NCBI GenBank assembly: GCA_032718475.1
Contig: JAUCBJ010000121.1
Span: forward strand, 23,094-87,093
Length of the DNA: 64,000 nt
From: Nemertoderma westbladi
Lineage: Eukaryota > Animalia > Xenacoelomorpha
Reading direction: 5' to 3'
Shown here: in pieces, positions 1-55,195 of the stretch
How the letters are laid out: each line of letters starts with the position of its first letter
Numbering within the stretch: the first letter of the stretch is position 1
Position numbers and translations under genes: made by a program
Notes under the pieces: generated by a model
What the model was told of the DNA's origin: nothing
What the model saw: the letters and a program-made list of their open reading frames with translations, nothing else
Database searches by the model: none

Positions 1-637
1 CCGGGGTCCGCGGCGGTGTCGTTCCTTTCTCTCCTATTCGGCTCATCTTTGTCTTTGGTGTCAGTCTATCACTGTCAGGGCAGCTGGGCGGATCTGATTC
101 TGTCACTGTGACGAGATCTACGGATCCCGGTTTATCCGTTGGGTTTTCTATCCACGCGTCCCCGCCGTATGTGAAAGGTAAAATAGTTCTGGTGTCCGGT
201 TATATGTATAAGGTATAATAGTCTGATATATATGTAATATAGTATGACACAACAGGTAATATAAGTATGATGGCGGTAGCGGACGGTGACAGAAGTCCCC
301 GTTCCACCCTACTGATCTGACTGAGTAAACTGAATGAATGATTACAGGTTACTGGTTATATTGCACGGTGGCCTTATTGCTACTCAATCGATGCCTTTCC
401 CCCCTCTGATTGGTTGATACCCCTGTTGGCACCCTTTGGAGTGTTTCCCTTCACTCCCTGTGTTCTCTCTCGGTTAGGGGTTTGGCCCCTGACCCCTATT
501 GTGTGTGTCTCCTTTGGGGCCTATTGTCCCCGTTTACTGGGCTGACACGAGGTTGATTGGTAATCAACCTCGTGCTCCCAATATTGCTTTATGGCTCACT
601 CTATGGGTTAGTGTTAGCGGAATTGGATAAGCTAACA
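1..637 (-). mobile_element. 5' end (5' LTR plus start of internal region) of a BEL/Pao-family LTR element extending left of the window, inserted into the gag of the + strand BEL element
   Basis: 1-106 matches 55157-55284 (ATG at 46-44 reads MSRIGEKGTTPPRTP vs MSREKGTTPPRTP). 107-637 matches the LTRs at 48695-49224 and 55285-55814. Sequence after 637 resumes abruptly in the middle of + strand gag. Confidence 0.9.
107..637 (-). repeat. LTR (~531 bp, TG...CA)
   Basis: Begins tgtgac at 107 and ends gctaaca at 637. Highly similar to the two LTRs of the 48695-55814 element. Confidence 0.92.
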
Positions 638-639
638 AG

Positions 640-1306
640 CGGGAATACTCCACTGAAAGGAGAAGAAGAGAAGACAGTAGTAGAAGTATCGCCGCGAACG
701 ATAGAAGAGCGAGGACGGATAGCGAGCCGTCGGTAGTCGAGATGAGAACAGAGAGTCAGTGGGGTCGGACTCCGGGAGATTGCCGTCGCCCCGGAGAGAT
801 GCGACCCGGCGAGGCGCACTACGCGCCGAGAGAGGGGTACGCGATGTACCGGTACGAAGATGAGAACAGTAGAGGGGGGGGTCGAAGAGAAACTTTCCGA
901 CGAAATATACCTACCGATCGAGAATACGGTAGCCGCGGGGAGGACTACTCGAGAAGAATAAACTTCGATCCCGAGCGACACATGCAGACTGTAGGACATA
1001 CTATAGGCCTTACTGCACATACCATAGGCCATACTGAGAGAGGCAATATAGGCAATAGGATAGCGTGGACAACGGGATTAAACCCGGAAGTCGCGGAATA
1101 CATACCGGCGAGTAGCCCAGAAGCTGATAGGCCTATACCGGTACCAGTACAGCAGTGTGACTACAGCATGCAGGGACATAACATATACCCAGGGGAGGGG
1201 GGAATTATTGCGGATAGGTGTATGGGCCCCAATATATTAACATCAACCCCAGTACCAAACATACCGGTGGGGGGGACAGGGTGACATTCCCCCATCACAA
1301 TATTAA
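640..1306 (+). pseudogene. N-terminal, low-complexity part of BEL gag, frameshifted
   Basis: Homologous to ORF 51489-53003 (SQWGRT.GDCRRPGE, TTGLNPEVAEYIP, MGPNILTSTPVPNIP). Frameshift in the G-run at ~1269-1275 and TAA at 1304-1306 where the relative has CGA. Confidence 0.85.
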
Positions 1307-1342
1307 CAATATACCCCGATAGGAGCAAGAACAACGAGACCC

Positions 1343-4300
1343 TTGGATGAGAATAGGTCGTGTGATACAGACATATGGAGGGGGCCGCTACCCCCGATGA
1401 CATACCCAAGTCAGAGAAAGTCAAGAAATAGGACAGACGGAACGCACCAGACAGGAGAAACTATACAGCATCCATCGAACCCATTGGAAGCACAGGCGAT
1501 GGGGATGGCCACGTTGATCGATGCGTTGAAAACGAGGATCGAGCTACCACCCGTGGAACCATTCAAATTCGATGGGAGCAGGCCGGAAGAATATCTACAG
1601 TTTCGGCGCATGTATAGTAACGAAATACGAACAAAAAACTTGACACAGGCGGAGTGCCTAAAGTATCTGCAAGTGTACACGGCAGGCCCAGCATACGATA
1701 TCGTGAGGCAATATCAAGGAATAGAGGGCGGCTTCACAACAGCATGGCGGGCACTGGATAGGGAATACGGGCACCCGGCCAAGATCATCAGGCAGACGCT
1801 GAGAGGCATAACATCGGGTGGCCTACAGGATAATCCCGTTAGCATTAAGACGTTCGCTAACAAAGTCGAAAAGGCGCTAATCGTGCTGAAGACGCTAGAC
1901 GCGCCGTACGAGCTCAATGCGTCCAACAACATCACCACGATAGCGCAGGCACTACCAAACTGGCTGCGCAACAAGTGGGGGAAAATCGCCTTCTCCACTC
2001 GAGATAAGAAGGGTGCGGAACCGGGTTTAGAAGAAATGTCAAACTTCTTAAACTACGAGGCTGAACTAATAACTGACCCAGTCTATAGCGAAGATAGCCT
2101 GGGAAAGGGACCGAAGACAGACTACCATAGACCGAAACCAGAGCACAACACATCAAACGCATTACCGAGACTCAGGCAATCATTGCCATATGCAGCGACG
2201 CAGGGGACTGCAAGTCCACAGCTAGCCGAGGATAAGACAACACCATGGAACGGACAGGGAAACAATAACAACACAAATAAACATAACCCCAGTACATCCA
2301 GTAGGCTGAATCCAAACAATAAGAATAGTAGGGACTTTGGTACAAACGCAACTGCGATACGCAATGCACTGTATAAAGAGGGCTACGACCCAAAGAGCAA
2401 ATGCCAGCTACACGCAAATGCGCTTCATCAAACCATGAACTGCAGGTACTGGCAGGCGCTACCTAGGCAAGATCAGATAGATTATGCATTCAGCAATAAA
2501 ATATGCTCGCGATGTGTAATGAGTGGACATAGAGCAAGGGAGTGCAAGGAGAAGCCAATAAAATTTGGTCAAAGGAGAGGCCAAATGATGGCGACGAGCA
2601 CAGTAGGGGCGAAGAAGAGGGGAACGGTGTTACTTGGAGTAGTACCAGTGCGAGTGATCGGGGAAGGCAATCGATCAGTAATAACACTAATGCTGGTTGA
2701 TAGTGGAGCTGCCTTCACATTAGTCGAGGAATGGGTGGCCGAGGAGATAGGATTGAGAACGAGGCCAAGCAGGATGGCGGTAACAACCATCTCTAGCAAA
2801 GATGAGATCCTGGAGATGAGAACAGGACGGTGCGCAATTGCAGCAGTGGCACCAGGATGCGACTATGGGGCAACCATCGACCCCATCCAAGTGATAGAGT
2901 CAATTAATATTAATGCCAGGCGACCAACCAAGATCGAGGTCGAGCAGTATAAATTCCTGGACGACATTGACTTCTCAATCCCAGACGTGGACGTTAGGAA
3001 GGTGTCCATCATAGTAGGCATGGACTGCCCAACGGCCCACGAAAGAATACAAACGGTCTTCGGCGAAGACAAGCAGAGTGACCCGGTGGCCATATTAACA
3101 CCATTCGGGTGGACGCTGAGTGGTCCAATCAAGAGTAAGATACCATTTAGGATGTCGGAGACATCAGGATGCATGTTCGCGGGAACAATGCAGGAAATGG
3201 GTGACGAGGGAGCAGAGGAGCAGCTTAAAAGACTGCTCAGACATGATTTCGAGGGACTGAAAGAAACCGGAGTCGGGACCTCAGTAGAAGACAAGCAGGC
3301 TTTACAAAGCGTGGAGGAACCGATGACATGCAATGAGGGGCGGTATACTATAGGAATGGTATGGAAACTACCGAAGATACCGCTGCCCGACAATAGGGGG
3401 ATGGTACTCACGAGACTCCGCAAACTGAAACAAACACTAAAATGGAGCCCCGAGAAGAATGAGTACATCCACATTACAATTAAGAAGTACGTCGAGAAAG
3501 GATGGGCCGTGGAGTTACCGGTCGACGAGCCGAACACGGATAGGACATATTACCTGCCACTACACATGGCTTTAGATCCAAAGAAAGGTAAACTACGGAT
3601 GGTAGTCGACGCATCGGCAAAGACCGACGGAAAGTGCTTAAACGACTACCTGTTAGAAGGCCCAAACATATACAATTCAGGCATAGAGGTGTTACTTAGA
3701 TTTAGAAATGGGAAACACGCCTTCACGTGTGACATAGAAGGCATGTTCAACCAAGTCCGTGTAACGGAGGAAGATAGCGACAGTCAGCGCTTCTTATGGT
3801 ATAACGGCGAGAAAGAACCGTCGATAATACCGGCATATAAGATGGTAGTACAGAACATGGGGGCCAAGTCGTCTTCATTTACGACGACTATGGCAGTGAG
3901 AGACACAGTAAAGGGGAAGGAAGATAGATACAGCAGTAGGGCCGTCGATATGATTCGACGCGGCTTCTACGTAGACGACGGAATGGAGTCTGGAAATACG
4001 GTTAAGGAGATACTGGATACAGGGCGCGAGGTTCGCGACATCCTAAAGGGATCCGGCTTTAACCTGACCAAATTCCAATCCAGTTCGGAAGAATTTATCA
4101 AGGCCATAGAGGACAGGAGACCAGAATCGACCATGGATAATCCCACAACAGCCAAAGGGCAGGACATGGCGATTAAGAGAACAGAATCTCAACAGAAGGC
4201 ATTGGGAATCGTGTGGGATAGAGAGACAGACGAACTGAAGTATCAGCTGAGCCAAGAGGGTGCAGACATCCACACGAAGAGGGGCTATGTATCGTATATA

Positions 4301-5029
4301 GCAAGGATATACGATCCCCTAGGCCTAGCATCCCCATTATTAGTCACAGGGAAACAGATACTCAAGAGAGTATACAAACTGAAGGATGAGTGGGACGTAG
4401 AGGTACCAGAGGAAATCAAGAAACAGTGGAGCAAGTGGACAGGAGACTTGGAGAAGATGGGAACATACAACATGCCACGGGTGTATTTCCCGGATGGGAA
4501 CATGACGAATCTGGACCTACACATGTTCTCCGACGCGTCGTTGGAAGCGTACGGAGCGGCACTCTACTTAGTACAACGAGAGGGGGCTCATAAGCCAAGA
4601 CTAGCCTTTAGCAAAGCAAAGTCAACGCCACCAGATTCAGCATCAGTTCCTAAGTTAGAATTGACAGCCGCGAGACTAGGAGTAAGAGCCACAGCCTACC
4701 TAGTGGATACTATTCCCAACATAGTGGAGACACACTACTGGACGGACTCCATGGTAGTGCTTGGCTGGCTACACAACGAAAGGACGAGATACCCGATATT
4801 CGTCGCGAATAGAGTTGACGAAATAAGGGCGAGTACAGAACTGGAAAGGTGGCACTACTGCCCAACAGACGATAACCCAGCGGACTTGTTGTCGAGGGGC
4901 GTGGTACGCCACACTTTCTTGAAGAAGGAAGTATTGTGGCAACATGGGCCACAATTTCTGAGCGATAAAGAGGCCTGGCCGCCGATGAGAAAGGTGGACC
5001 CGGGCTCAGAAGTAGTATCAGAAGGATAA
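1343..5029 (+). CDS. BEL/Pao Gag-protease-reverse transcriptase-RNase H polyprotein (main segment)
   Basis: DUF1759-like gag core (FDGSRPEEYLQF...LDREYG), Cys/His knuckles (CQLHANALHQTMNC, CSRCVMSGHRAREC), protease LVDSGA, RT DIEGMF and FYVDDG, YDPLG, RNase H FSDAS / PKLEL / WTDS / NPADLLSRG. Confidence 0.95.
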   Translation: MDENRSCDTDIWRGPLPPMTYPSQRKSRNRTDGTHQTGETIQHPSNPLEAQAMGMATLIDALKTRIELPPVEPFKFDGSRPEEYLQFRRMYSNEIRTKNLTQAECLKYLQVYTAGPAYDIVRQYQGIEGGFTTAWRALDREYGHPAKIIRQTLRGITSGGLQDNPVSIKTFANKVEKALIVLKTLDAPYELNASNNITTIAQALPNWLRNKWGKIAFSTRDKKGAEPGLEEMSNFLNYEAELITDPVYSEDSLGKGPKTDYHRPKPEHNTSNALPRLRQSLPYAATQGTASPQLAEDKTTPWNGQGNNNNTNKHNPSTSSRLNPNNKNSRDFGTNATAIRNALYKEGYDPKSKCQLHANALHQTMNCRYWQALPRQDQIDYAFSNKICSRCVMSGHRARECKEKPIKFGQRRGQMMATSTVGAKKRGTVLLGVVPVRVIGEGNRSVITLMLVDSGAAFTLVEEWVAEEIGLRTRPSRMAVTTISSKDEILEMRTGRCAIAAVAPGCDYGATIDPIQVIESININARRPTKIEVEQYKFLDDIDFSIPDVDVRKVSIIVGMDCPTAHERIQTVFGEDKQSDPVAILTPFGWTLSGPIKSKIPFRMSETSGCMFAGTMQEMGDEGAEEQLKRLLRHDFEGLKETGVGTSVEDKQALQSVEEPMTCNEGRYTIGMVWKLPKIPLPDNRGMVLTRLRKLKQTLKWSPEKNEYIHITIKKYVEKGWAVELPVDEPNTDRTYYLPLHMALDPKKGKLRMVVDASAKTDGKCLNDYLLEGPNIYNSGIEVLLRFRNGKHAFTCDIEGMFNQVRVTEEDSDSQRFLWYNGEKEPSIIPAYKMVVQNMGAKSSSFTTTMAVRDTVKGKEDRYSSRAVDMIRRGFYVDDGMESGNTVKEILDTGREVRDILKGSGFNLTKFQSSSEEFIKAIEDRRPESTMDNPTTAKGQDMAIKRTESQQKALGIVWDRETDELKYQLSQEGADIHTKRGYVSYIARIYDPLGLASPLLVTGKQILKRVYKLKDEWDVEVPEEIKKQWSKWTGDLEKMGTYNMPRVYFPDGNMTNLDLHMFSDASLEAYGAALYLVQREGAHKPRLAFSKAKSTPPDSASVPKLELTAARLGVRATAYLVDTIPNIVETHYWTDSMVVLGWLHNERTRYPIFVANRVDEIRASTELERWHYCPTDDNPADLLSRGVVRHTFLKKEVLWQHGPQFLSDKEAWPPMRKVDPGSEVVSEG

Positions 5030-5065
5030 GAGGGAGATTCAGAGGGAGAAGATATATACTCCCAG

Positions 5066-6607
5066 ATGGTGAGGGAGATTAGGGACGTGCAACCAGGACG
5101 GGAACTGTGCGATAACCCGACGGATAAACTCCTCAGCTACAGTTCTAGTTGGTATAAGACCAAGAAACTAGTGGCGTACTGGAGAGCCTTCGGCAATTTC
5201 CTTGCGGGAGTTGGCAAGGACAAGAAGATCAGGACAACCATAGATCTGGAAGGAGCGGCCAAGGCAGTGATCCGCTATGAACAACGGAAGAACTATGGCA
5301 ACGAGGTGGAACGCATCGGTAACCAACAGCACCTCCGACAGGACAGCGAGCTGATTACGCTGTCGCCACAACTCAATGACGACAGGATTCTAGTAATGCA
5401 TTCTAGGGTGGGATACAACAACAGCATAGTCGTACCACCGAAACCCATCATCATTCCTACAGGATCGCCAATAGTCCACCAGATTATATGGGACTCCCAC
5501 AAATCGATATTGCATGGGGGCACCAACCGAACCCTCACAGAGATAAGGAGGACCTATTGGGTCAAACAACTGAGGAAGAAGGTAAAAGCGGTAGTGGGGC
5601 AGTGCCAGACCTGCCGACGAGCGAAGAAGGAGCGAGCCGTACAGGAGATGGCGCCACTACCGGCGAGTAGGGTAAGACAGCACGACCCGCCATTTACGCA
5701 TTGCGGTGTGGACATGTTCGGGCCGATAAAGATCAAAGTGATGCGACACACGGAGAAACGCTACGGCATTATCTTCATATGCAACAACACGCAGGCGGTA
5801 GGGATAGAACTCGCCCAAGATGCAACCGCATCAGCGTTCATTAACGCCTTAGAAAGGTTTAGGGACCGCAAAGGTGGGACGATCGCAGTGATATACAGCG
5901 ACAACGGCACCAACTTTGTGGGCACAGAGAGTGAGATGGCAGAGGCCTTGGACATCTTGGAGGGAGAAGAAGTCAGGGCAGCCATGAGGCGACGACAAGT
6001 AAAGTGGGAGAGAAGGACACCGTATGCACCACATACACTAGGGTGCGTCGAGAGACTGGTGGGCAGTTCAAAGCGTCTAATGACGAAGCTAATGAACACC
6101 CACATGGTCACTGAGGACGTCTTACGGACAGTACTTGCGAAGTGCGAGGGGATCATTAATAGCAGACCGCTATATCCGGAGAATGATGACCCTGAGTCAT
6201 TAGACGTGCTGACGCCTAGCCATTTCCTGATGGAAAGGCCAGCGACCATCGATATGCGGGGTGTAGACCCAGATGACATACACTCCCGCCAAAGTTGGAA
6301 AGTCGCTAAAGCAATAAGCGCAGAGTATTGGAGGAGGTGGGTCGACGAATACCTACCCACACTCCATAAACGAAGCAAGTGGAGGAAGTCAAACAGGGAG
6401 TTAAGAGAGGGAGATCTCGTAATCGTTACGGATGATACTATCATCAACAACCAATGGCGGTTGGCGAGAGTTGTAGGCACCTACTCCGACGAGGACGGAA
6501 GAGTCCGATCGGTAGAAGTGCGGATAGGTGGAAAGATAGGTGCGAAGGACAGAAAAACCTACAGGAGAGCTGTAGGCAAATGCTGTCTGTTAGAAGGGGC
6601 AACTTAG
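5066..6607 (+). CDS. BEL/Pao integrase (same frame as upstream pol, separated by premature TAA at 5027-5029)
   Basis: HHCC (HKSILH...CQTC), GVDMFGP, SDNGTNF, ERLV, NSRPL, LTPSHFL and a DUF5641-like tail (YWRRWVDEYL, GDLV, WRLARV, DGRVRSV). The 36-nt gap after the stop keeps the frame. Confidence 0.93.
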   Translation: MVREIRDVQPGRELCDNPTDKLLSYSSSWYKTKKLVAYWRAFGNFLAGVGKDKKIRTTIDLEGAAKAVIRYEQRKNYGNEVERIGNQQHLRQDSELITLSPQLNDDRILVMHSRVGYNNSIVVPPKPIIIPTGSPIVHQIIWDSHKSILHGGTNRTLTEIRRTYWVKQLRKKVKAVVGQCQTCRRAKKERAVQEMAPLPASRVRQHDPPFTHCGVDMFGPIKIKVMRHTEKRYGIIFICNNTQAVGIELAQDATASAFINALERFRDRKGGTIAVIYSDNGTNFVGTESEMAEALDILEGEEVRAAMRRRQVKWERRTPYAPHTLGCVERLVGSSKRLMTKLMNTHMVTEDVLRTVLAKCEGIINSRPLYPENDDPESLDVLTPSHFLMERPATIDMRGVDPDDIHSRQSWKVAKAISAEYWRRWVDEYLPTLHKRSKWRKSNRELREGDLVIVTDDTIINNQWRLARVVGTYSDEDGRVRSVEVRIGGKIGAKDRKTYRRAVGKCCLLEGAT

Positions 6608-6721
6608 TAGAGTTAGAGAAAAGTTTAGTCGTCCAAGTTTTGGACTGAGGGGGGTGGGATTGAGGGCGAGACGCCCTTCCCACAAACAAGCAAATAAAAT
6701 AAAATAAAAATAATAGTACAT

Positions 6722-7535
6722 GGTAGGTACGCAGTTAGTAGGCAGAAGTTAGTTAAGAGGTACGTAGTACCTAGTTAGTTAGTTAGTTAGTTAGAGGGTA
6801 CGTAGTACCGCCAGTCAGAGAGTTAGTTAGAAGGTACGTAGTACCTAGTTAGTTAGTTAGTTAGAGGGTACGTAGTACCGCCAGTTAGAGAGTTAGTTAG
6901 AAGGTACGTAGTACCTAGTTAGTTAGTTAGTTAGAGGGTACGTAGTACCGCCAGTCAGAGAGTTAGTTAGAAGGTACGTAGTACCTAGTTAGTTAGTTAG
7001 TTAGTTAGTTAGAGGGTACGTAGTACCGCCAGTTAGAGAGTTAGTTAGAAGGTACGTAGTACCTAGTTAGTTAGTTAGTTAGAGGGTACGTAGTACCGCC
7101 AGTTAAAGAGTTAGTTAGAAGGTACGTAGTACCTAGTTAGTTAGAGGGTACGTAGTACCGCTAGTTAGTTAGAGTTAGAGGGTACGTAGTACCGCTAGTT
7201 AGTTAGAGAGTTAGAGGGTACATAAGTACCGTTAGTTAGTTAGAGAGTTAGAGGGTACGTAAGTACCGCTAGTTAGTTAGAGAGTTAGAGGGTACGTAAG
7301 TACCGTTAGTTAGTTAGAGAGTTAGAGGGTACGTAAGTACCGCTAGTTAGTTAGAGTTAGAGGGTACGTAGTACCGTTAGTTAGTTAGAGAGTTAGGGGG
7401 TACGTAGTACCGTTAGTTAGAGAAGAGTTAGAGGGTACGTAGTACCGTTAGTTAGAGAAGAGTTAGAGGGTACGTAGTACTGTTAGTTAGTTAGAATTAG
7501 AGTTAGAGGGTACGTAGTACCGTTAGTTAGAAGAT
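6722..7535 (+). repeat. Tandem array of ~20 GGTAC-N3/4-GTACC mini-hairpins separated by (TTAG)n/AG-rich spacers, internal to the BEL element
   Basis: Repeated ggtacgtagtacc, ggtacgtaagtacc and ggtacataagtacc units spaced by agttagttagttagag. A homologous array lies at ~49640-51460 on the - strand. Confidence 0.95.
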
Positions 7536-8020
7536 AGAGAGTAAGAGGTAAAAGGGGGTATATAAGATATAGATATTAGTTAGCAGTTAGTAGAGAGAGG
7601 GGGGCATATGAGTACAGCTGGGTAAATCGTGTGGCCACACGACGCATACTGCTGTACTGCATAGGCCCACAGAGTAGGCCAGAATGTGGATTAGAGAATA
7701 GAATAATCCATAGGCAGTAGTAAGTAGTAGGACAGTAGAATCAAAATTAAATAGGTGAATAAATAGAATAGGGCTGAAAGTTACAAATAATGGCAACACA
7801 AGGAAAGTTATTCTAGAACATAATAAAAGTAACGGACAGAAATTGTAAATTACGCCCATTTACTAGCTTCAAAATTAATTAGTAATAATTTAGGTTAAAA
7901 GGCGCAGTTAAATAGGAAATAGGCCATTATCGAACCGTACAGAACATCCTAGATACATCACTCATCTGTATTGCGCCTTGGTAAGGCACCACCTTGCAGG
8001 TGAGCGAGTGAACGTTCGGA

Positions 8021-10567
8021 ATGGCGAGTAAGTTGATCAGAAAGAGAAAAGCGGAGTCAGGAGGAAAGGAGATACTGGTGGATTTCACCGAGAGGCATCC
8101 GGAAGAGAAGACGAGAGGATACTACGAGAGGTTGGAAAGGGGTCACGCGGCGCGAGCGCTGCAGGATCACTTCAGGGAGATGCACGAACAGCGGCTGGTC
8201 GGGACCTACGGGACGCCGTCGCTGGACAACGCGATCTTCCAACACTTCCACTACGTGGTGAAAGGGGACGAGGCGAAGTTCGGGATTCCGAAGTACCCGA
8301 GGGAATCACCGAGGAAGGACTGGAAAAGATTCATAGAGTCCGTCAACAGAGGAGGATATATGATCCTAGACGACGAGGGAACCGTGGAAGACGAGGCGGG
8401 TTCGAGACGAGGAACGGCGGGGTCGGCCAGGACCATACTCCTACATTTGGCCGCGCCAAATGGGGACATCTTCTTGTTCGACCTAGGGACGTATGGGAAG
8501 AAGGACGGGCCGAAATTAAACCGGTTACCGAAAGCGGTACAAGTTTTGGTAAGAGAGAAGTCGACGACGAAAGTGGGATCGGCGATTCGCAAGGATTCGG
8601 AGAGAATCATCGGTCCGGACGCCACCAACCTCCTGGATATGCAGAAGGTCTTTATGGCTATGACGGCACCGGATGGGTTGGGGGTAGTCGAAAACACAGG
8701 CCAATGCGGGGCGGTGGCAATGGGCCAGCTATTGGGGCTCGTATGCCACAAACCGATGGATTGGGGGAAGTTTAGGGAAGAATACGGAGCAGAACTAGAG
8801 AACTCGCTAAAGTGGGGAGCGAGACCAGGAAAGCAGGAGGTATATCAATTCCGCAGGGGAGCGATAAAGGTATATCAGAAGCGATATATCCTGCAGGAGG
8901 ACTGGATGATGATAAGTTTGCTTAACTTATTCATGACCGTGGTTATCGAGAGGGAACCAGGGGCATTTCTGTTATCGGGATCACCCCTAAGCTACAGGAG
9001 AGCCTTTAAGACGGCCTTTGACGGTCTGGTAGACCACCCGGGGCTGAAGGGCGAGTCGGTGTACTACAACAGCCGACATATGGTAGACGGGGAGACAGAT
9101 ACACCGTATCAGAGATGGGAGCAGCTAGAGACGGATAGACGAGAAGCAAAGCGACTGGAAGAAGTCGCTAGACGGGAGAGGATAGAAGCAGAGGAGAGGG
9201 AAGAGGAGGCCAGGACACAGAGTTACGGCTTCGAGGAACAGGCAGGCCTAGACGAACTTCATTGGACTTCATCAGGGAGTTCGGGGGAGTCTCTAGGGCG
9301 AGAATTGGGATGGACGGTGGGATCGCCGAAACAGTCGACGTCGGGGTTGCAAACGATGCCCATACCAGCGGGCGCCGAGGGCGACCAACCGCCAAGGAAG
9401 TTAAGGGAGCTAGAGGGATGGAGAGCTACGGGCGAGAGCCAAGGCGGGAAGGGACATAGTGTATCCATCGGGATACCGGGGTTGGAGACACTGCCAGAAG
9501 AGGAGGACAACGACGACGAGTTCGGAGAGATGCCGCCCATCGAGAGGATAGGCCACTCGGACACGGACTGGGTTGGCGGAAGGGTGGTGACGGCCAGTTG
9601 GGCGAGGGCCTTCTGGAACAGATCCGGCAAGCGGACCTGGGTGCACGAGGACCCGGCGATGGATTTCGCGGGGAGCACTATCAGGTTGGGCGAGCAACCG
9701 GGGATGGCACCACGGATAGTATTCGGGGAGACGATGCCCGAGAGGGGCGGAGAGATCGACGTAGATAGAGAGACCAACGTAGAGAAGTTCGCCTACCAGC
9801 GACTCCACAAACCGCGGAGATCGCTTGGGACGAAAGACGAGGTGGGACGGGAGACATTGGTACTCGGCTGCGACTACTGTGGGAGACAGACCCATCGGGA
9901 AAGGAGCTGCCTATACCGGTTCCAGAAGGGAACCTTTTGTCTCTACTGCCGAGAACCAAGCCACAGGATGGGGGCGTGTCCACAGTTGCATAACCGATGT
10001 CCAAAGTGCCACTTTCGGGGACACTATGGACGCAAATGCGACTGGATGAACGACGAGGAGAAGTTCACGAGATTCGAGGAGTGGGCCGACGTCGAGGCCA
10101 TGACGCGCCAGCGCATGAAGGCCCAGGAGTTCAAGTGGGGTTTCTTCCTTATCAATCAGGAGACTCACATGGAGATCATAAAGCGGAGGCTACCGTTTAC
10201 CTACCAAGAGTTAGCAACGGCGGCGTCGTACGCCGGAGTGATGAACACGCAAAGATATTTGGACAGGTGGACGCCAGAGAACCGAAGGGAGTTTAGGGAT
10301 TTCTTGGCGGAGCACGTACCACAAGCAATGAAGATGATCCTATGGGACGCCACTAGAGGGAGACAACCGGGCCACTCTGAGGGGCCACCGGCGAAGCGAT
10401 ATCGGGCACTAATAACACCAGCGCCCAGGGAGCCAACGACCGGGATCAGCAGGGAGGTGGCGGCGAAGGTCCGAAAGCAGAAAGCGGATCCCAGAGGAAC
10501 GGTGGTAACCAAGAAACGACCCAGGGAAGAGGACGCCAGGGGGAACTATCCCCAGAGGAACAGATAG
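8021..10567 (+). CDS. Accessory ORF3 of the BEL element: DEDDy (WRN/EXD/RNase D-like) 3'-5' exonuclease domain, acidic linker and three CCHC zinc knuckles
   Basis: Uninterrupted 848 codons with ATG start. ExoI-like ILDDEG (D117/E119), LLHLAAPNGDIFLFDL, LPKAVQVLVREKSTTKVGSAIRKD (ExoII D192), LLDMQ, ExoIII-like QKRYILQED. CX2CX4HX4C x3 at 9869-10039 (CDYC..H..C, CLYC..H..C, CPKC..H..C). Located between pol and PPT/3' LTR. Confidence 0.8.
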   Translation: MASKLIRKRKAESGGKEILVDFTERHPEEKTRGYYERLERGHAARALQDHFREMHEQRLVGTYGTPSLDNAIFQHFHYVVKGDEAKFGIPKYPRESPRKDWKRFIESVNRGGYMILDDEGTVEDEAGSRRGTAGSARTILLHLAAPNGDIFLFDLGTYGKKDGPKLNRLPKAVQVLVREKSTTKVGSAIRKDSERIIGPDATNLLDMQKVFMAMTAPDGLGVVENTGQCGAVAMGQLLGLVCHKPMDWGKFREEYGAELENSLKWGARPGKQEVYQFRRGAIKVYQKRYILQEDWMMISLLNLFMTVVIEREPGAFLLSGSPLSYRRAFKTAFDGLVDHPGLKGESVYYNSRHMVDGETDTPYQRWEQLETDRREAKRLEEVARRERIEAEEREEEARTQSYGFEEQAGLDELHWTSSGSSGESLGRELGWTVGSPKQSTSGLQTMPIPAGAEGDQPPRKLRELEGWRATGESQGGKGHSVSIGIPGLETLPEEEDNDDEFGEMPPIERIGHSDTDWVGGRVVTASWARAFWNRSGKRTWVHEDPAMDFAGSTIRLGEQPGMAPRIVFGETMPERGGEIDVDRETNVEKFAYQRLHKPRRSLGTKDEVGRETLVLGCDYCGRQTHRERSCLYRFQKGTFCLYCREPSHRMGACPQLHNRCPKCHFRGHYGRKCDWMNDEEKFTRFEEWADVEAMTRQRMKAQEFKWGFFLINQETHMEIIKRRLPFTYQELATAASYAGVMNTQRYLDRWTPENRREFRDFLAEHVPQAMKMILWDATRGRQPGHSEGPPAKRYRALITPAPREPTTGISREVAAKVRKQKADPRGTVVTKKRPREEDARGNYPQRNR

Positions 10568-11238: not shown

Positions 11239-11276
11239 ATGCTATCTTCTTACCGGGAAGATAGCATGGGGGGGAG
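11239..11276 (+). promoter_or_regulatory. 11-bp stem hairpin followed by the polypurine tract
   Basis: ATGCTATCTTC-ttaccgg-GAAGATAGCAT then GGGGGGGAG abutting the LTR TG. Same structure at 49225-49262 (- strand). Confidence 0.85.
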
Positions 11277-11822
11277 TGTTAGCTTATTCAATCCCGCTAA
11301 CACCCCATAAAGTTAAGCCGATAAGCAATATTGGGAGCCACGAGATTGGGTAATTAACCAACTCGTGCCATCCCAATAAGAATGGGAAGGAGAAGCACAC
11401 AATGAGGGTCAGGGGCCAAACCCCTAACCCAGAGAGAATAGGTGGAGTGAACGGGAACACTCCAAAGGGCGCCAACAAGGGTATCAACCAATCAGAGGGG
11501 GGAAAGGCATCGATTAGGTAGAGTAACAAGGACAACCGTGCAATATAGCCACTTGGCAGTAATCATATCAATTCAGTTATCTCAGTGCAATACTGGTGCT
11601 AGTTTAGGTTACATAGTTTAGCTAGGGAAGGACCGGGACTTTAGTTACCGTATCCCGCCTTCCGTATACAACAACTATATTATCTCATATCTATATCTAT
11701 ATCTGTATACCCAAATATTATATACGACGAACAGCACAAACTCATTCACTCTTTATACACGGCGGGGACGCGTGAACTAACAACGGATAAGTTTATTACT
11801 AACAACGGATAGGTTTATTACA
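11277..11822 (+). repeat. 3' LTR of the + strand BEL element (diverged subfamily)
   Basis: Starts TGTTAGCTTAT and is colinear with the reverse complement of 107-637 (CCAATCAGAGGGGGGAAAGGCATCGATT, GGCGGGGACGCGTG). A 22-bp terminal tandem duplication blurs the end. Confidence 0.85.
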
Positions 11823-21770: not shown

Positions 21771-21775
21771 AACAA

Positions 21776-48694: not shown

Positions 48695-49224
48695 TGTGAC
48701 GGGATCTACGGATCCCGGTTTATCCGTTGGGTTTTCTATCCACGCGTCCCCGCCGTGTGTGAAAGGTAAAAGAGTTCTGATGTTGGGTAATATGTATAAA
48801 GGTATAATAGTCTGACAGTTGATATAGTATAGTATGACACAACAGGTAATATATAATGGCGGTAGCGGACGGTGACAGAAGTCCCCGTTCCACCCTACTG
48901 ATCTGACTGAGTAAACTGAATGAATGATTACAGGTTACTGGTTATATTGCACGGTGGCCTTATTGCTACTCAATCGATGCCTTTCCCCCCTCTGATTGGT
49001 TGGTATCCCTGTTGTCACCCTTTGGAGTGTTTCCCTTCACTCCCAGTTGTTCTCTCTCGGTTAGGGGTTTGGCCCCTGACCCTTATTGTGTGTGTCTCCT
49101 TTGGGGCCTATTGTCCCCGTTTACTGGGCTGACACGAGGTTGATTGGTAATCAACCTCGTGCTCCCAATATTGCTTAATGCCTCACTCTATGGGTTTGTG
49201 TTAGCGGAATTGGATAAGCTAACA
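48695..49224 (-). repeat. 3' LTR of the non-autonomous element
   Basis: Adjacent to the PPT complement ctccccccc at 49225. Confidence 0.96.
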
Positions 49225-49639
49225 CTCCCCCCCATGCTATCTTCCCGGTAAGAAGATAGCATCCAACTAAAGTGCGCTACAATTCCGCTGGAACTCGATC
49301 TATTATCGGGTGTGGGGTGGGGTTATTTTCTTGGAGTCGGCTTTCCAGGCCGCTCCCTATGGGTATGATGTCACTACCCTCTGGCGTCTCGTGTCGGGCC
49401 GATCGTGCGCTTCTCTCACACAATTTTTGTTTCCCCAACACTCTCACCACTCTACTCCAACTCTCTCATACCCCCGGACCTCCTCGTCCCACAATCTTTC
49501 TCTCACTTCTCCTCCCCCACACTTGAATTGCGCCCACGCTCTCTTCGCACTCCGCACTATCACTCCATCACTCTCTCGTCACTCCCTAAGGCTTTATTCT
49601 CTAATGCTACCCCTGTGCTATCATACTATCTACCTACTG

Positions 49640-51460
49640 CTTACTAACTCTAACTATCTAACTAACTCTGCTAACTACTAACTCTTACTACTTCTAGCTC
49701 TAACTGAGAGCCTCTAACTTTCTACTGACTCTAACTCTCTACTAAGTCTAACTAACTCCTACTAACTTTCTACTTCTACTAACTCTACTTGACTCCTCTG
49801 AGTCTACCAACTCTGCTAACTAGCTCTACTAACTCTACTCCACTAGCTCTGCTAACTCTACTCCACTAGCTCTACTAACTCTACTCCACTCTTCTAACTA
49901 CGTGGCGCTTGCGGTGCCCACAACCACTCGACTATCTGGCACCCTATGTGCCCTTCTACTACTCAACTACCTCTCTAGCTCTACTACCTGGCACCCTATG
50001 TGCCCCCTCTGCTCTACTCTACTACCTGGCACCCTATGTGCCCTCTCTACTACTCTACTCTATCTCTAACTCTCTAACTCTACTACCCGGCACCCTATGT
50101 GCCCTCTCTACTACACTACTACCTCTCTAACTCTACTACCTGGCACCCTATGTGCCCGTCTCTACTACTCTACTCTATCTCTAACTCTCTAACTCTACTA
50201 CCTGGCACCCTACGTGCCCGTCTCTACTCTTCTACTCACTGGTACCCTATGTACCCTCTCTACTACCTCTAACACTCTACTCTACTACCTGGCACCCTAT
50301 GTGCCCTCTCTACTCTTCTACTACCTGGCACCCAATGTGCCCGTCTCTACTCCTCTACTCCCCTTTACGTCTCATCGCCTACACGTGACGCTCTGAGTGC
50401 CGGCAGAGTGGGTACGTTAATTATGTGAACTACTACTGACTCTACTAACTCTCTTCTAACTCTACTAACTCTTTTTGTGCCCGGCACCTCTTGTGCCCGG
50501 CACCTTCTAACTCTACTAACTCTTTTTGTGCCCGGCACCTCTTGTGCCCGGCACCTTCTAACTCTACTAACTCTCTACTAACTCAACTAACTCTACTACT
50601 AACTCAACTAACTCTACTACTAACTCTTTTTGTGCCCGGCACCTCTTGTGCCCGGCACCCACCCTAATTAACATACCCTGCTCTTACATCAAACACGTCA
50701 TCACGCCCGTGCCCCACTAAGTTCAGCGCATTCCCTACTAACTCTAACTACGTGGCGCTTATGGTGCCCACAACCCTCTACTGCTCTACTAACACTCCTA
50801 ACTAGCGGTACTACGTACCCTCTTACTACTCTAGCTCTCTCTACTAGCTAGCGGTACAACGTACCCTCTTACTACTCCTACTCTCTAGCCGGTACTTACG
50901 TACCCTCTAACTCTAACTAACTAGCGGTACTTACGTACCCTCTAACTCTAACTCTAACTAGGTACTACGTACCTTCTAACTCTAACTCTAACTAGGTACT
51001 ACGTACCTACTAACTCTCTAACTATCGGTACTACGTACCCTCTAACTCTAACTCTAACTAGGTACTACGTACCTACTGACTCTCTAACTAACTCTAGGTA
51101 CTACGTACCTACTAACTCTAACTCTAACTAGGTACTACGTACCTACTAACTCTAACTCTAACTAGGTACTACGTACCTACTAACTCTTACTAACTCTCTA
51201 ACGGTACTACGTACCTACTAACTCTAACTCTAACTAGGTACTACGTACCTACTGACTCTCTAACTAGGTACTACGTACCTACTAACTCTTACTAACTCTA
51301 TAACGGTACTACGTACCCCTTAACTCCTACTCTCTAACGGTAGAGAGACTCTCGAACTCTTACTCTAACACTAACTATCAGTGCTAACTGACTAACTAAC
51401 TAACTCTGACTCTAGGTACTACGTACCTCCTAAATAACTCCTAACTACCTAACTTCTACC
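49640..51460 (-). repeat. Expanded hairpin/(TTAG, TAG)n array of the non-autonomous element
   Basis: Plus-strand units ggtactacgtacc, ggcaccctatgtgcc and ggcacctcttgtgcc separated by ctaac/ctact repeats. Confidence 0.92.
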
Positions 51461-51488
51461 TACTTTATTATTTAATTATTTTATTTAA

Positions 51489-53003
51489 TTAAATAATTAT
51501 TTTATATTTTGTGCGTGGGAAGGGCGTCTCGCCCTCATTCCCACCCCCCTCAGTCCAAAACTTTGGACGACTAAAAACTCTCACGTGCCCCTTCTTCCGG
51601 TAGGCACTCTCCTGCTGCCCTCCTATACGTCCTCTAACTCTTCGCCACACTCTCTTCGGTGCTACCTTTGCTGGCCTCCCCCTTCGTATGTGCGCTGGCA
51701 TTAGAGCCCTCGACGACCCCCGCTCGTCCCTCGGTATACGCGGTGTCTGCCCGTGCAATGCCCCCCCGCACTGTGTCAGCCCTGCGTGTGTATGCAACAC
51801 GCCTCCTTCTACTTTCCCGACTCCTTTGCTCATGGACTTCTCTACCCCTGGTTTAGTCCTTTCACATCCTCTCCCTTTCCAACACTCTCCGGATCTGTGT
51901 CCTTTTACCATACATCGATGACATAGTCCGTTTGCGTCTGTGTAGGCTACACGATCTCGTTTGGGCAACGCTTGCCAGTACTTGCAACTCCTGGTCTTAT
52001 GGGTTCCGTCCCGATGTAATTGACATTGGAATCCTGGATTATAGCGTTTCCTGTATAGTCCTTCACGTATCGCGCTTAGGTTTATATGTACCGATTTAAT
52101 GTTTCGATTGTCTAGACTCGGCCTACTGGGTATATTGGGATTGTGTTTATTATATATGGTGTTATTTTCTTCCTGTCCCTGCCACGGTGTGGCCCTGCTA
52201 CCACCTAACTGTGGACTAGCAGTCCCCTGTACGGCCGCGTGTGGTATTGACTGTCCGCACGACCTGTTCTCTTCCAAGGGGTTCGATGTTCTCGCTCCTA
52301 TTGGGGTATATTGTCGATATTGTGATGGGGGAATGTCACCCTGTCCCCCCCCGGCCGGTATGTTTGGTACTGGGGTTGATGTTAATATATTGGGGCCCAT
52401 ACATCTATCTCCAATAACTCCCCCCTCCCCTGGATATATGTTATGTCCCTGTGTATTATAGTCATGCTGCTGTACCGATATAGGCCTACCTACCTCTCGC
52501 CTACCTACTGGTATGTACTCCGCGACTTCCGGGTTTAATCCCGTTGTTCGCGCTACCCTATCGCCTACTCTATCTCTCCCAGCATGGTCTATAATAGTAT
52601 GTGCAGTAAGGCCTACAGTATGTCCTGCAGTCTGCATGTGCCCTTCCGAACCGAAGTTTATTCTTCGCGAATCTCGAATCTCCCCGCGGCTACTGCACTC
52701 TCGATCGGCAGCTATATCCCGTCGGGAAGTTTCCCTTCGATCCCCTATCCTGCTCTCGTCTTCGTATTTGTACGTCCTGTACCCCTCTCTTGGCGTGCGG
52801 TGCGTTTCTCCGGGGCGACGGCAATCTCCCGAAGTTCGACCCCACTGGCTCCCTGACTCCATCTCTACTATCGACGGTCCGTTATCCGTCCTCGCACTCC
52901 TATCGTTCGTGGCGACACCTTTTCTACTATCTCCTCTTCTTCTCTTTTCGGTGCAGTATTCCGGCTCGTGAGATCTCTCGTCGACCTCCCGGTTAAACTC
53001 CAC
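51489..53003 (-). CDS. Internally deleted Gag derivative (N-terminal region fused to the zinc knuckles; capsid core absent)
   Basis: Aligns to 640-1360, then jumps (EENRSC|GQSIPHAAVQGTASPQL) to the region at ~2173. Retains CQLHRDGTHKTRSC and CHRCMVKGHRSGEC and ends in sequence matching the post-pol region. Confidence 0.75.
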   Translation of the reverse strand: MEFNREVDERSHEPEYCTEKRRRGDSRKGVATNDRSARTDNGPSIVEMESGSQWGRTSGDCRRPGETHRTPREGYRTYKYEDESRIGDRRETSRRDIAADRECSSRGEIRDSRRINFGSEGHMQTAGHTVGLTAHTIIDHAGRDRVGDRVARTTGLNPEVAEYIPVGRREVGRPISVQQHDYNTQGHNIYPGEGGVIGDRCMGPNILTSTPVPNIPAGGGQGDIPPSQYRQYTPIGARTSNPLEENRSCGQSIPHAAVQGTASPQLGGSRATPWQGQEENNTIYNKHNPNIPSRPSLDNRNIKSVHINLSAIREGLYRKRYNPGFQCQLHRDGTHKTRSCKYWQALPKRDRVAYTDANGLCHRCMVKGHRSGECWKGRGCERTKPGVEKSMSKGVGKVEGGVLHTHAGLTQCGGALHGQTPRIPRDERGSSRALMPAHIRRGRPAKVAPKRVWRRVRGRIGGQQESAYRKKGHVRVFSRPKFWTEGGGNEGETPFPRTKYKIII

Positions 53004-53146
53004 TGTTCTTCTTCCCTCTTCTAATCAGGCTCGACGCTTCGTCTGCCCTCTCGCGACGTCAACCTGCTTCTCTCTGCTCGATTGCACGCCGCTGGGGATA
53101 CTCGCAATCCCCCTATTACTTTCCGTCGCCGGTTGTTGCAGTTTAC

Positions 53147-55195
53147 CTATTTCGGCCCTCGCATTATCCGCTGACGGCTGTGGGACACTCTCTGCCCCCC
53201 CTCTCTCTCTACTAACTTCTCGTGGTGGGGTGTCCGTAGCCCCCCCCCCCACCCGCCACTTCTAACTTCACTACTTCTTACTACACTTCTACACTCCTCT
53301 TGTGGGGCATTCTCTGCCCCCCCTCTCTCGCCACTAATCTTATGTGGTGGGGCGCCCGTAGCTCCCCCCCACTCGCCACATCTTACTTCACTATCTCTTA
53401 CTTCGTCTCTACACCCCTCTCTAGTCGACGCACTGTCTCTACTACGGCTGGGTCTATTCACCCCCGCCTCTCTCTCTACTACTGCGTGGCCCATCAGGCC
53501 TACTTCGGGTTGGCTCAACCCCGCTACCCCCTGCCTACCAACTACGTGGCCTACCAGGCCGCCGTCGGGTTGGCTCAACCCTGCCACTTCCTGCCTACTA
53601 ACTACGTGGCCTACCAGGCCACCGTCTGCCGGGTTATGTACGTCCGACACGCTCATATTAATAGCACCATTCCCAATATTATTTGTTAAATCAATTAAAT
53701 TATTAGAATTTGAAACGGGATTATTATTTAAATTATTTAAATTACTTAGATCACTACTATTCTCTAAACTTAAATTATTATTCGAATTATTTTGCGGGTT
53801 TGAATTGAAATTATTATTTAGAATATTTGTATTTAAATTTAAATTACTACTACCCGGTAAAATATTATTTCCTGTAATAAAGGGATTAGGGTTATCTACT
53901 ACGGTACTATTAATATTAACTACTTCTGACGTACTACTACTACCCCCCTCGCCCGTACGGCTACACCAGTTCTGGTTCTCTCGCCCGGTGCCTGTAAGTG
54001 GGGTCTCACTCTCTGACATTTCCAACCGCGCCGGTTCTAGTCGGCGCCGCTCCAGTTTGGCTTGATATTGCGCAAGCCTGCCTAGCCGGGCACGCAAATC
54101 ATCCCGCACACGCTCTGCCTCTATCTCTCTCTCTATGCACTCTCGTAAACTTTGCTCGGCCAACTCGGTATCTCTCGCAACCATCTCAAACCGCCTCGCC
54201 GGCTCGCTCTCTACTCTCATCTCCCGCTCTCTACACTCCTTGACTCTCTCTCTACACACCTCGACTCTCTCTCTATCCTCCCTTGCCCACTCTCTTTCTC
54301 TCTCTATAACGGCGGCATTATCCCTCAGTTGCCGCTCTGTGCTATTCAGCTTTGCCGCTACCATTTCTAATTCATACGTCAGATTTATTTTCAGCACCCT
54401 TCTTTCTTTCGCGGAGGATGTAGCAGACTTATCGGTTGCGACGGACTCCCGTCGCCCCTCCGTCCTACCAACTCCCTCCGACCCCGCCTCCGACCGACGA
54501 GACCGAATCCTCGGAGTTAACCTCGGATTCGCCCTCCCCAGGTCTCTTCCAACCCACTAATTTTATATCCTGGGCATCGACTAAGTATGGCCCTATGTAC
54601 ACTACACTATACCCCCACATTCCCATAGTTCAAACAGTTCGAAGGCAACTCCCCACGCCCTCAACTCTGCTAGTTCTCTCTGCCCAGAACGCACTAGGTG
54701 ATCAAAGTATCTGTTCGACTCACCTAGTCCCTTTCTCAGTCTCACCTCGTCTATCTTCGCCCCTCCTTTGGCCTCTCTCAGTTGCTCCCGGGTCGCGAGG
54801 TAGGCCCGTCGAAGTCGATCAGAAACCCCGACGTCCTCGTCACCGACCTCTCCTCCATCTCTCCAGGTCCGACGTCGTACCGACGGCCCCACCGTCGCCG
54901 TTCCGGTGGACCGTTCGTCGTCCTCGGCCTGTGGCTGGCCGGTGACATCGGTATGTCGACCCTCGCTCCGCGTCGACTCGTCTTTCTCTTCTTCTCCCTT
55001 CTCGTCTCCTTCCCTCGACTCGCTCTCCAGTTGTAGACGACCCCCCACATCTCGGTTCGCCGGGTTGCTCGTTGTCGACGTGGTCGGCGTAGCATCGACC
55101 GGCGTCGTGGGTTCGTATCGTCTCGCCATGGCCTCGCGGATCGTTAGATCGTCGTCCGGGGTCCGCGGCGGTGTCGTTCCTTTCTCTCGACTCAT
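53147..55195 (-). pseudogene. 5' gag extension (coiled-coil, Asn-rich, with internal peptide repeats), split into ORFs 54602-55195 and 53147-54397
   Basis: ATG shortly after the 5' LTR, E/R-rich coiled-coil, 20-aa repeats (DGGLVGHVV.RQ.VAGLSQP). Apparent frameshifts near 54600 and at the C-run ~53240-53250. Confidence 0.6.

Follow-up and report, generated by a model that had tools for sequence, protein, structure and literature searches.

Organization of the ORF3-bearing element

The window (64,000 nucleotides of a Nemertoderma westbladi contig) contains an LTR retrotransposon that carries an accessory gene, ORF3 (Table 1). Judged by its Pfam profiles, the carrier is a BEL/Pao element. The gag-protease-RT-RNase H frame matches DUF1759 (2.8e-11) and Peptidase_A17 (2e-40), with weak matches to aspartic protease and RVT_1, and the following frame matches Integrase_H2C2 (7.7e-13) and DUF5641 (1.7e-24), with a weak match to rve; the BEL-specific profiles DUF1759, Peptidase_A17, and DUF5641 occur in that order, all over the cut-off. 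The polypurine tract and the 3' LTR of this copy lie inside the window. Its own 5' LTR is outside, since the LTR at 107-637, in inverted orientation, belongs to a sister element that had inserted into gag; inverted terminal repeats were rejected on the same grounds. In other copies, gag continues beyond 638 with a different sequence. At least three lesions had been predicted in gag-pol of this copy. The frame is indeed broken, by two reading-frame lesions (a switch of frame located between 1284 and 1307 and an in-frame stop at 5027-5029), and additionally by the nested sister insertion. No second copy of ORF3 was found by tblastn within the window, no tRNA gene was found anywhere in it, and no Rfam match of note was obtained in 1-12000.

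Table 1. Features of the ORF3-bearing element and of its sister elements in the window.
Feature	Position	Strand	Basis or remark
5' LTR of sister element, inserted inversely into gag	107..637	-	
5' gag fragment, severed at 637/638 by nested sister element	638..1284	+	
BEL gag-protease-RT-RNase H frame, terminated by in-frame stop	1307..5029	+	Pfam
BEL integrase	5030..6607	+	Pfam
Tandem array, 35-37 and 70 nt units, pol-ORF3 interval	6720..7560	+	Related array in sister element
Candidate splice acceptor, CAG ending at 7999, 21 nt upstream of ORF3 ATG	7981..8020	+	By eye
ORF3, 848 aa accessory gene, env position	8021..10567	+	ORF reading; multi-copy, purifying selection
Predicted DEDDy exonuclease domain (RNase D/WRN/Mut-7-like, 3'-5'), aa ~105-305	8333..8935	+	ESM Atlas; pairwise and profile tests
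DEDDy-domain motif residues D117, E119, D192, Y289, E293 (D294 adjacent)	8333..8935	+	
Long charged helix, aa 361-408	9101..9244	+	Single confident stretch of full-length model, block pLDDT 77-88
Linker after the aa 361-408 helix			Low-confidence prediction
Three CX2CX4HX4C zinc knuckles, aa 617-673	9869..10039	+	Pattern scan; zf-CCHC look-alikes
Helical region behind knuckles, aa ~682-777	10064..10351	+	Low-confidence predicted helices; no Pfam match
Polypurine tract	11268..11276	+	
3' LTR, TG start, 11822 end approximate	11277..11822	+	~79% identity to sister LTRs over first ~310 nt
Non-autonomous sister element, no pol, no ORF3	48695..55814	-	LTRs 99.4% identical, 5-bp target duplication
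Sister element: predicted 46-nt transcript start and pairing leader	55240..55507	-	Same arrangement in element at 1-637

The original prediction of an uninterrupted 848-codon frame between the integrase and repeat array and the polypurine tract and 3' LTR was confirmed: ORF3 runs from the ATG at 8021 to the stop ending at 10567 without a break, while the longest open stretch over 200 shuffles was 387 codons. It also has the purine bias ascribed to it, with an A+G content of 0.63, compared to 0.61 in gag-pol and 0.50 in 12000-48000 of the window. Codon usage of ORF3 is positively correlated with that of BEL gag-pol and integrase (0.67-0.70), and negatively with that of the neighbouring gypsy and LINE ORFs (about -0.5). 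An independent single insertion was rejected based on the many copies, the element-like codon usage, and the spacer and 3' UTR that are joined to ORF3 in other copies. As anticipated, env features are absent: no R-x-K/R-R (furin-type) site, signal peptide, or transmembrane segment was found in ORF3, its peak 19-residue hydropathy is 1.3, and a single N-glycosylation sequon is present. We therefore rejected an env gene. Clusters of basic residues are located at aa 7-10, 789-795, and 831-835, and resemble nuclear localisation signals.

ORF3 is shared across the element family and under purifying selection

Three adverse outcomes had been named for ORF3 (presence in this copy only, a dN/dS near 1, and acidic residues not conserved among copies), and none was borne out. 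ORF3 is covered by hundreds of diverged contig pieces. Among 40 listed variants of the nuclease region, 30 were silent, versus 12.2 expected (P 9e-9); the crude omega was 0.15, and would be 0.48 in the worst case, were 23 further variants all non-silent. In the same 40 variants, the codons of D117 and D192 were affected by silent changes only, and no variant was present at the codons of E119, Y289, E293, and D294, so there was no amino-acid change at the motif codons. We conclude that ORF3 belongs to the element family as a whole and that purifying selection acts on it.

A different picture was obtained for the copy in the window. Three out of four copy-specific changes in the nuclease region of its ORF3 alter the protein, and this copy seems to be drifting. 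The contrast between an intact ORF3 and a lesioned gag-pol, to which the original prediction gave weight, was not upheld, because chance alone, by length, gives such a combination with a P of about 0.35-0.5. Domestication or special preservation of this copy was rejected in view of the protein-altering changes.

The ORF3 nuclease domain is likely DEDDy-derived

Family PF01612 comprises RNase D, WRN, EXD2, Mut-7/Nibbler, Rrp6, and the inactive EXD1, and the order of its motifs (DxE...KVG-x3-x-D...D...W...Y-x3-acid) is common to ORF3. The residues D117, E119, D192, Y289, E293, and D294 were located at the positions originally claimed. In ExoI, D117/E119 align with the D-T-E of references; in ExoII, D192 lies within KVGSAIRKD, the top-scoring stretch of the domain; in ExoIII, Y289-x3-E293 is in register, with Glu in place of the reference Asp and with D294 one residue on. 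The ExoIII acid had been given as E293 or D294; both are present, and the alignment places E293, not the Asp, in register. An insertion of ca. 12 residues relative to references precedes the ExoIII acid. WRN-like references match best at the ExoII region (KVGxxIxxD) and at the W that follows ExoIII. Overall, the domain differs from PF01612 by scores under every Pfam threshold, about 18% identity, the ExoIII Glu, and insertions.

Several comparisons point to this family. When aa 70-350 were searched against the ESM Atlas, 24 out of 30 matches were PF01612-bearing clusters (score 0.94, 170 shared features, PF01612 on 34% of members of the listed cluster), although shuffled proteins reach 0.9 in 4-10 cases out of 100 and the figures are not calibrated for protein parts. 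A 54-sequence RNase D/WRN/PolI profile aligned globally over 170 columns, with ExoI, ExoII, and ExoIII in register, and scored 20.0, versus 5.9 or less in 40 shuffles, none of which reached the ORF3 score; the local score was 30.0, versus 19.0 in shuffles. In hmmsearch, the custom profile gave 5.7 bits, a score reached by 0/1000 full and 1/1000 local shuffles, and custom-profile matches to the domain had a P of about 1e-3. BLASTP against E. coli RNase D gave an E of 3e-4 in a single-pair comparison. A 17-sequence WRN-like profile was marginal (5/1000 shuffles reached the ORF3 score), hhalign with 10 sequences gave an E of 0.016, and HH probabilities were 10-31%. An RNase D-only profile missed ORF3, with 92/1000 shuffles equalling its score, and neither the WRN-only global run nor the two RNase D-only runs were better than shuffles. 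A search aimed at eukaryotic EXD2/WRN listed 120 matches, whose named members were bacterial except one.

Database searches with the nuclease domain gave no match in Pfam, NCBIfam, or, using phmmer, the PDB. No homologs of whole ORF3 were found among 7993 candidates, and none of the nuclease domain among 823. A single HMMER match over 1.84 billion representatives, to a 14-fold repeat protein with 18 residues matched, was rejected. Searches of viral, metagenome, and prokaryote contigs yielded no relatives, and two matches with an E of 9 were all that plasmids yielded. Juno or Vesta ORF3 did not come up in any of the homolog searches. A scan of metagenome and viral contigs for the PPT/LTR patterns was negative. 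Single-sequence AlphaFold models of ORF3 (pLDDT 35 and 32) were unusable, and the best Foldseek E with the low-pLDDT domain model (0.81) is meaningless.

Thus, the original assignment of a DEDDy domain to aa ~105-305 stands as far as the motifs and the ESM Atlas are concerned, while profile scores are weak and no usable structure model was obtained. A failure to predict an RNase H-like DEDD fold, which was named as evidence against it, did not appear, the fold being backed by weak profiles and language-model features. The domain is likely, though not proven, to be DEDDy-derived, and a two-metal site may be predicted from D117, E119, D192, and E293 or D294.

As predicted, ORF3 also contains three consecutive CX2CX4HX4C knuckles, starting at aa 617, 640, and 660, about 300 residues away from the nuclease domain. 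None was found in 20000 protein shuffles. Their matches were zf-CCHC look-alikes, with weak nucleocapsid, LIN-28, and 7c42 matches.

Discussion

Juno and Vesta, two LTR elements of bdelloid rotifers, are Ty3/gypsy-like. DEDDy ORF3s have been published in both, and in Athena/Terminon elements (PMC5408684; PMC6431247), so that the precedent cited in the original prediction is real. Bdelloid ORF3 is likewise a separate, non-env ORF past pol with an RNase D-like DEDDy domain in which one acidic position has turned into Glu, but the bdelloid variant is DEED, whereas ORF3 here reads D, E, D, E, with the change in ExoIII. The carrier here is BEL/Pao, and the word BEL is absent from the bdelloid paper (PMC5408684). 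ORF3 additionally has three CCHC knuckles, which are not described for bdelloid ORF3 in the text consulted, as well as a long helix, a linker, and a helical tail; purifying selection is demonstrated here. Other BEL/Pao elements have an extra ORF in the same integrase-3' LTR interval, namely the F-like protein of Roo and a chuvirus-like glycoprotein in mosquitoes (PMC13524379), but ORF3, unlike these env genes, lacks a signal peptide, transmembrane segment, and furin site.

A similar layout is that of Trypanosoma brucei RNase D, TbRND (PDB 7C42 series), whose Exo domain is followed by four C-terminal RNA-binding CCHC fingers, and whose overexpression depletes guide RNAs (PMC7797062). ORF3 shares the RNase D-type Exo domain followed by a C-terminal CCHC array. 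TbRND, however, is a cellular enzyme; its fingers number four, its DEDD is canonical, and its linker spans 28 residues, versus ~300 residues in ORF3. The two sequences match in the knuckles only, and weakly (E 0.98), the Exo domain having no PDB match; the shared layout is therefore probably convergent.

Our best explanation, to which we give somewhat less than an even chance, is that the ORF3 protein acts in trans, trimming RNA in the 3'-5' direction and thereby countering silencing by small RNAs. The three knuckles would hold single-stranded RNA for the exoribonuclease domain, which would trim or eliminate the small RNAs that the host uses for silencing, or the precursors of these. That the substrate would be RNA rather than DNA is suggested by the knuckle array and the analogy to TbRND; the choice of small RNAs as the target is likewise by analogy. 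Since an acceptor-like site is located 21 nt upstream of the ATG, ORF3 may be expressed separately from spliced RNA, and the basic clusters at both ends suggest that the protein would be imported into the nucleus. The recently inserted sister without ORF3 fits action in trans. Against this reading, the bdelloid authors saw no clear link of DEDDy ORF3 with copy number (PMC5408684).

As the main alternative, in our view rather unlikely, ORF3 may be an active exoribonuclease that works on the RNA of the element itself, recruited by nucleocapsid-like knuckles, which would trim the 3' end to a duplex, yielding a self-priming primer or removing inhibitory tails. The bdelloid paper likewise suggests 3'-end processing of element RNA (PMC5408684). 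The sister elements provide further evidence, as both look self-primed. No TGG follows the 5' LTR in either, and the first 9 nt of each leader complement the LTR of the same element (18/5000 shuffles). The predicted 46-nt transcript start of the sister can pair with the first 45 nt past the LTR, with 9 perfect pairs from the LTR edge, on which the predicted primer end exactly falls; this 46-nt duplex (-43 to -46 kcal/mol), which starts at the predicted transcript start, was matched by 0/200 shuffled LTRs and 1/66 control windows. However, the ORF3-bearing copy has its leader outside the window, and its LTR, which is different where the pairing would occur, pairs with the sister leader no better than shuffles do (-27.1). 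In the free fold, pairs of the 9-bp helix reach a probability of 0.07 at most, and the helix costs 1-3 kcal/mol; the two sisters are closely related and without compensatory change, and the basic clusters suggest the nucleus over particles. A tRNA-Asp half would pair over 7 nt only and was rejected as a primer. Tf1/sushi-type elements prime themselves through a pairing segment of about 11 nt, and we know of no comparable ORF in them. Self-priming has been described for Tf1/sushi and other LTR elements (PMC6317226), and they share with the sister elements a primer site that complements the own LTR, and no tRNA site; the sister elements are BEL, not Ty3/gypsy, and pair over 46 nt. The extended version of this scenario, in which a BEL/Pao lineage abandoned its tRNA primer and captured an RNase D-zinc-knuckle enzyme for primer maturation at the LTR-leader duplex, we hold to be decidedly unlikely.

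It is unlikely that nuclease activity is low or lost and that the protein serves to bind RNA as a decoy or scaffold, in the manner of EXD1 and Maelstrom, which are catalytically inactive, RNA-binding DEDD derivatives in piRNA biogenesis (PMC5408684). The literature searched gave nothing on how Glu at ExoIII affects such enzymes. The Glu for Asp in ExoIII, the insertions nearby, and the extreme divergence of the domain from every reference would be expected of such a protein, but four acids and the Tyr are retained, without an amino-acid-changing variant among 40 listed, the adjoining D294 could substitute for E293, and bdelloid ORF3s with a D-to-E change (DEED) were judged possibly active (PMC5408684).

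That the domain is no DEDD nuclease, and ORF3 is an orphan knuckle protein with a chance resemblance, is improbable: Pfam, NCBIfam, PDB, and database searches were without match, HH probabilities are low, and shuffles come close to the Atlas score, but language-model features and profile alignment converge on one family, and five motif blocks occur in correct order and spacing. Still less probable is a WRN/Klenow-like DNA 3'-5' exonuclease that would proofread cDNA or trim its ends pre-integration, since ORF3 is separate and unfused to RT or integrase, its knuckle array is typical of RNA binders, and most LTR elements, to our knowledge, manage without such an enzyme, even though the ExoII region and post-ExoIII W best match WRN-like references and Dada DNA transposons carry an embedded DEDDy domain with proposed DNA-end processing (PMC3706591).

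We found no published report of an exonuclease and CCHC-knuckle ORF in a retrotransposon, or of a BEL carrier. ORF3 is a further exonuclease capture, in a different LTR superfamily, and adds clear purifying selection over many copies. The activity and benefit of bdelloid ORF3 were left untested in the report, and the role of exonuclease ORF3s has been open since; substrate tests are made concrete here, because the RNA-binding knuckle array mirrors a solved enzyme, TbRND. If primer-making proved true, ORF3 would tie an accessory gene to tRNA-free priming. If small-RNA degradation did, an animal retrotransposon would encode, in ORF3, a counter-silencing factor that works as an enzyme.

ORF3 and Its BEL/Pao Carrier

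ORF3, the accessory frame in the env position of the BEL/Pao element, is open over 848 codons, while the longest open stretch among 200 shuffles was 387 codons. It encodes three CX2CX4HX4C knuckles with first residues at positions 617, 640, and 660 (none in 20000 shuffles), no hydrophobic stretch of transmembrane strength (maximum hydropathy 1.3), and, on scanning of the protein, no furin-type site. The original prediction of an intact frame with a triple knuckle and no env features was thus borne out. The purine (A+G) content, 0.63, matches that of BEL gag-pol, as had been claimed, and codon usage correlates with gag-pol (r 0.67-0.70), whereas its correlation with nearby gypsy and LINE ORFs is negative (r about -0.5). 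Because both properties follow gag-pol rather than the neighbours, they suggest long residence of ORF3 in the element. From the N- to the C-terminus, the protein consists of a basic N-terminus, the nuclease region, a long charged helix, a low-confidence linker, the knuckles, a helical region, and a basic tail; the charged helix is the sole confident part of the single-sequence AlphaFold model. An acceptor-like CAG, read by eye, ends 21 nt upstream of the ATG; spliced messages are the usual route of ORF3 expression (PMC5408684).

Pfam matches above cut-off to DUF1759, Peptidase_A17, Integrase_H2C2, and DUF5641 were obtained in the carrier, which is therefore a BEL/Pao element, ordered gag-pol, tandem array, spacer, ORF3, 3' UTR, PPT, and LTR. 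The absence of lesions from ORF3 beside two to three in gag-pol is expected by chance (P 0.49-0.35), and the earlier hint that this contrast is meaningful was not upheld. The inverted repeat at the window start proved to be the 5' LTR of a related element, or sister, inserted backwards into gag at 637/638; beyond 638, other copies in contigs of public runs continue with different sequence. In a second sister (55814-48695), which has a 5-bp target duplication, the two LTRs are 99.4% identical; comparison within the window revealed neither pol nor ORF3 in it.

Features of the window
Feature	Coordinates	Remarks
Frame change in gag-pol	between 1284 and 1307	carrier
Stop in gag-pol	5027-5029	carrier
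Conserved G-rich block	6624-6690; 51575-51510 (-)	directly after pol, before tandem array; retained by the deletion derivative; may act in cis, as a packaging signal, internal promoter or central PPT
Tandem array	about 6720-7560	carrier, between pol and spacer
ORF3	8021-10567 (+)	ATG to stop
Internal ORF3 deletion joints	8324-10173; 9840-10591; 10033-10590	some copies (runs X1, X3, X5); two of three end shortly past stop codon
PPT	11268-11276	carrier
3' LTR	starts 11277	carrier
LINE-like element	12848-14890 and 20460-24038	split by gypsy-type element; endonuclease and RT-like frames in second part
LINE-like ORF	12848-14054	PHD/C1-like and CCCH-like fingers
Gypsy-type LTR element	14873-20553	197-bp LTRs 100% identical; 1047-aa open pol frame; very recent insertion
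545-bp inverted repeat pair	24880-26711, 34688-34916, 39975-40298	on either side of RT-like fragments; incomplete copies at other places in window
Piece of another BEL pol	34871-36307 (+)	RT-RNase H-like motifs by eye
Satellite array	38076-39952	period about 55 bp
234-aa frame	42012-42716 (+)	signal-peptide-like start, many cysteines, hydrophobic C-terminus; may be a secreted or surface protein of the host
Young non-autonomous BEL derivative	48695-55814 (-)	gag 5' region long, Asn-rich
Purine-rich tandem arrays of derivative	about 49600-51500	several, at the positions expected for pol and ORF3
Candidate self-priming sites	55507-55240 (-) and 331-62 (-)	approximate; predicted 46-nt pairing ends exactly at LTR edge

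Copies and Selection

Copies were surveyed in contigs from public sequencing runs, X1 and X2 being from the same sample. At least part of the studied stretch was found in six of the seven runs listed, and all 30 bins of 600-12000 were covered in three DNA runs. Contig pieces aligned to the 630-nt nuclease region at 80-100% identity numbered 1332 (X1), 761 (X2), and 858 (X3); summed contig depths do not equal copy numbers. One X5 contig (7919-8324) crosses from the spacer into ORF3, and the last two deletion joints in the table connect the ORF3 interior with the 3' UTR. We infer pol-ORF3 linkage in other copies, since none of the contigs listed spans both.

Variants of the nuclease region comprised 63 rows at 12% or more, 40 of which were evaluated. 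Thirty of the 40 were silent, whereas changes of these kinds would be expected to yield 12.2 silent rows (P 9e-9, crude omega 0.15); counted in the two other frames, silent rows numbered 11 and 2. In the worst case, with all 23 remaining rows non-silent, P was 0.003 and omega 0.48. No indels at 12% or more were present in this region of the contig pieces. In the 600-12000 comparison, 14/20 ORF3 rows were silent (from 40 of 2045 rows). We conclude that ORF3 is a family gene under selection. At four places in the nuclease region the window copy differs from a state that nearly all other copies share, and three of these differences change the protein (22 of 40 rows entered this count, the others being judged below threshold by reading the variant list), and seems to be drifting.

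The Predicted Nuclease Domain

Pfam and NCBIfam gave no match to the nuclease domain, a PDB sequence search no relative of it, and three large database searches no real relative; the sole match of the large HMMER search, a repeat protein, was spurious. Scans of viral, metagenome, and prokaryote contigs also revealed no relatives. AlphaFold without an alignment produced no usable model of ORF3 or the domain, making a fold search with the domain model meaningless. By ESM Atlas features, residues 70-350 scored 0.94-0.95, with 24 of 30 matches in the PF01612 set and six in unnamed clusters; a few sequences in 100 would score this high by chance, and the scale is uncalibrated for protein parts.

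Reference profiles were built from retrieved RNase D, WRN-like, and PolI domains. The WRN-like seed is a fair reference because it retrieves WRN, EXD2, Mut-7, Rrp6, and TbRND (Trypanosoma brucei RNase D) from the PDB. With the combined profile of 54 non-redundant sequences (of 169), hmmsearch gave ORF3 5.7 bits, matched by 0/1000 full and 1/1000 local shuffles; none of seven further ORFs in the window exceeded 0.8. Global hhalign covered 170 columns with a score of 20.0, versus 2.4 +/- 1.3 in 40 shuffles. ILDDE aligned with ALDTE, LLHLA and IFLFDL with two core strands, KVGSAIRKD with ExoII, LLDM with D-T-Q, W-G-A-R-P with W-L-A-R-P, and YILQEDW with YAATDAW, placing E293 as the in-register ExoIII acid. 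HH probabilities were 10-31%, and neither the global run with the WRN-only profile nor the runs with RNase D alone gave a positive result. The predicted domain very probably adopts a DEDDy fold and is likely to be catalytically active; ORF3 is real and under selection, and its product is probably a DEDDy-derived RNA nuclease with knuckles.

Proposed Role

In TbRND, CCHC fingers hold single-stranded RNA 5-9 nt from the 3' end and a two-cation site removes nucleotides; overexpression depletes guide RNAs (PMC7797062). Since TbRND shows how an exonuclease-CCHC layout works, the ORF3 protein would be an RNA 3'-trimmer working in trans. By analogy, it may, tentatively, act on the small RNAs of host silencing or on their precursors, a choice favoured because ORF3 stands apart from pol, carries NLS-like sequences at both ends, and is missing from a young sister. 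Among viruses, Lassa NP offers a parallel: its exonuclease digests dsRNA and thereby suppresses immune signalling (PMC3429428).

A less probable reading is that ORF3 processes the element's own RNA in general, for example by finishing a self-primed RT primer, as a 3'-5' nuclease could. In neither sister is the 5' LTR followed by TGG or another tRNA-type primer site, and the first 9 nt of the sister leader are complementary to the LTR from position 344/345 on (18/5000 shuffles). These 9 nt end a 46-nt duplex between the leader and the transcript start, predicted by eye from TATA/Inr spacing; its strength, -43 to -46 kcal/mol, was matched by 0/200 shuffled LTRs and 1/66 control windows. The pairing resembles the self-priming of Tf1 type that is known from Tf1/sushi, Tcn1, and TAR (PMC6317226). 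However, free folding works against the 9-bp helix (pair probability no higher than 0.07), the leader of the ORF3-bearing copy lies outside the window, and its LTR differs from the sisters at the pairing site. AATAAA/ATTAAA is absent from the sister LTRs.

Among the 40 of 63 variants, the D117 and D192 codons had only silent rows, and D118, E119, D206, Y289, E293, and D294 none; that ORF3 is an inactive decoy appears improbable. A fold other than DEDD is more doubtful still: Pfam gave no match to the originally predicted DEDDy pattern and AlphaFold no usable model, but its motifs all lay in register in the combined profile, and the ESM features pointed to PF01612. A DNA exonuclease, in place of the RNA nuclease with knuckles, is the most unlikely reading.

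Relation to Known Systems

The precedent named in the original prediction is published: bdelloid Juno, Vesta, and Terminons carry DEDDy ORF3s, for which a DEED variant but no activity is reported (PMC5408684). Dada DNA transposons embed a DEDDy domain (PMC3706591). For exonuclease ORF3s, the accessible parts of PMC6431247 and PMC6338049 cite rotifer cases only, and those of PMC13524379 list env-type ORFs of BEL with no mention of an exonuclease. A literature search, with most subscription papers and Repbase outside its scope, found no BEL carrier of an exonuclease or of an exonuclease-knuckle architecture. Exonuclease capture by mobile elements thus recurs, and the new parts here are the carrier, from a BEL/Pao group restricted to metazoans (PMC3601003), the knuckle fusion (bdelloid ORF3s may also bear knuckles), and the evidence of selection.
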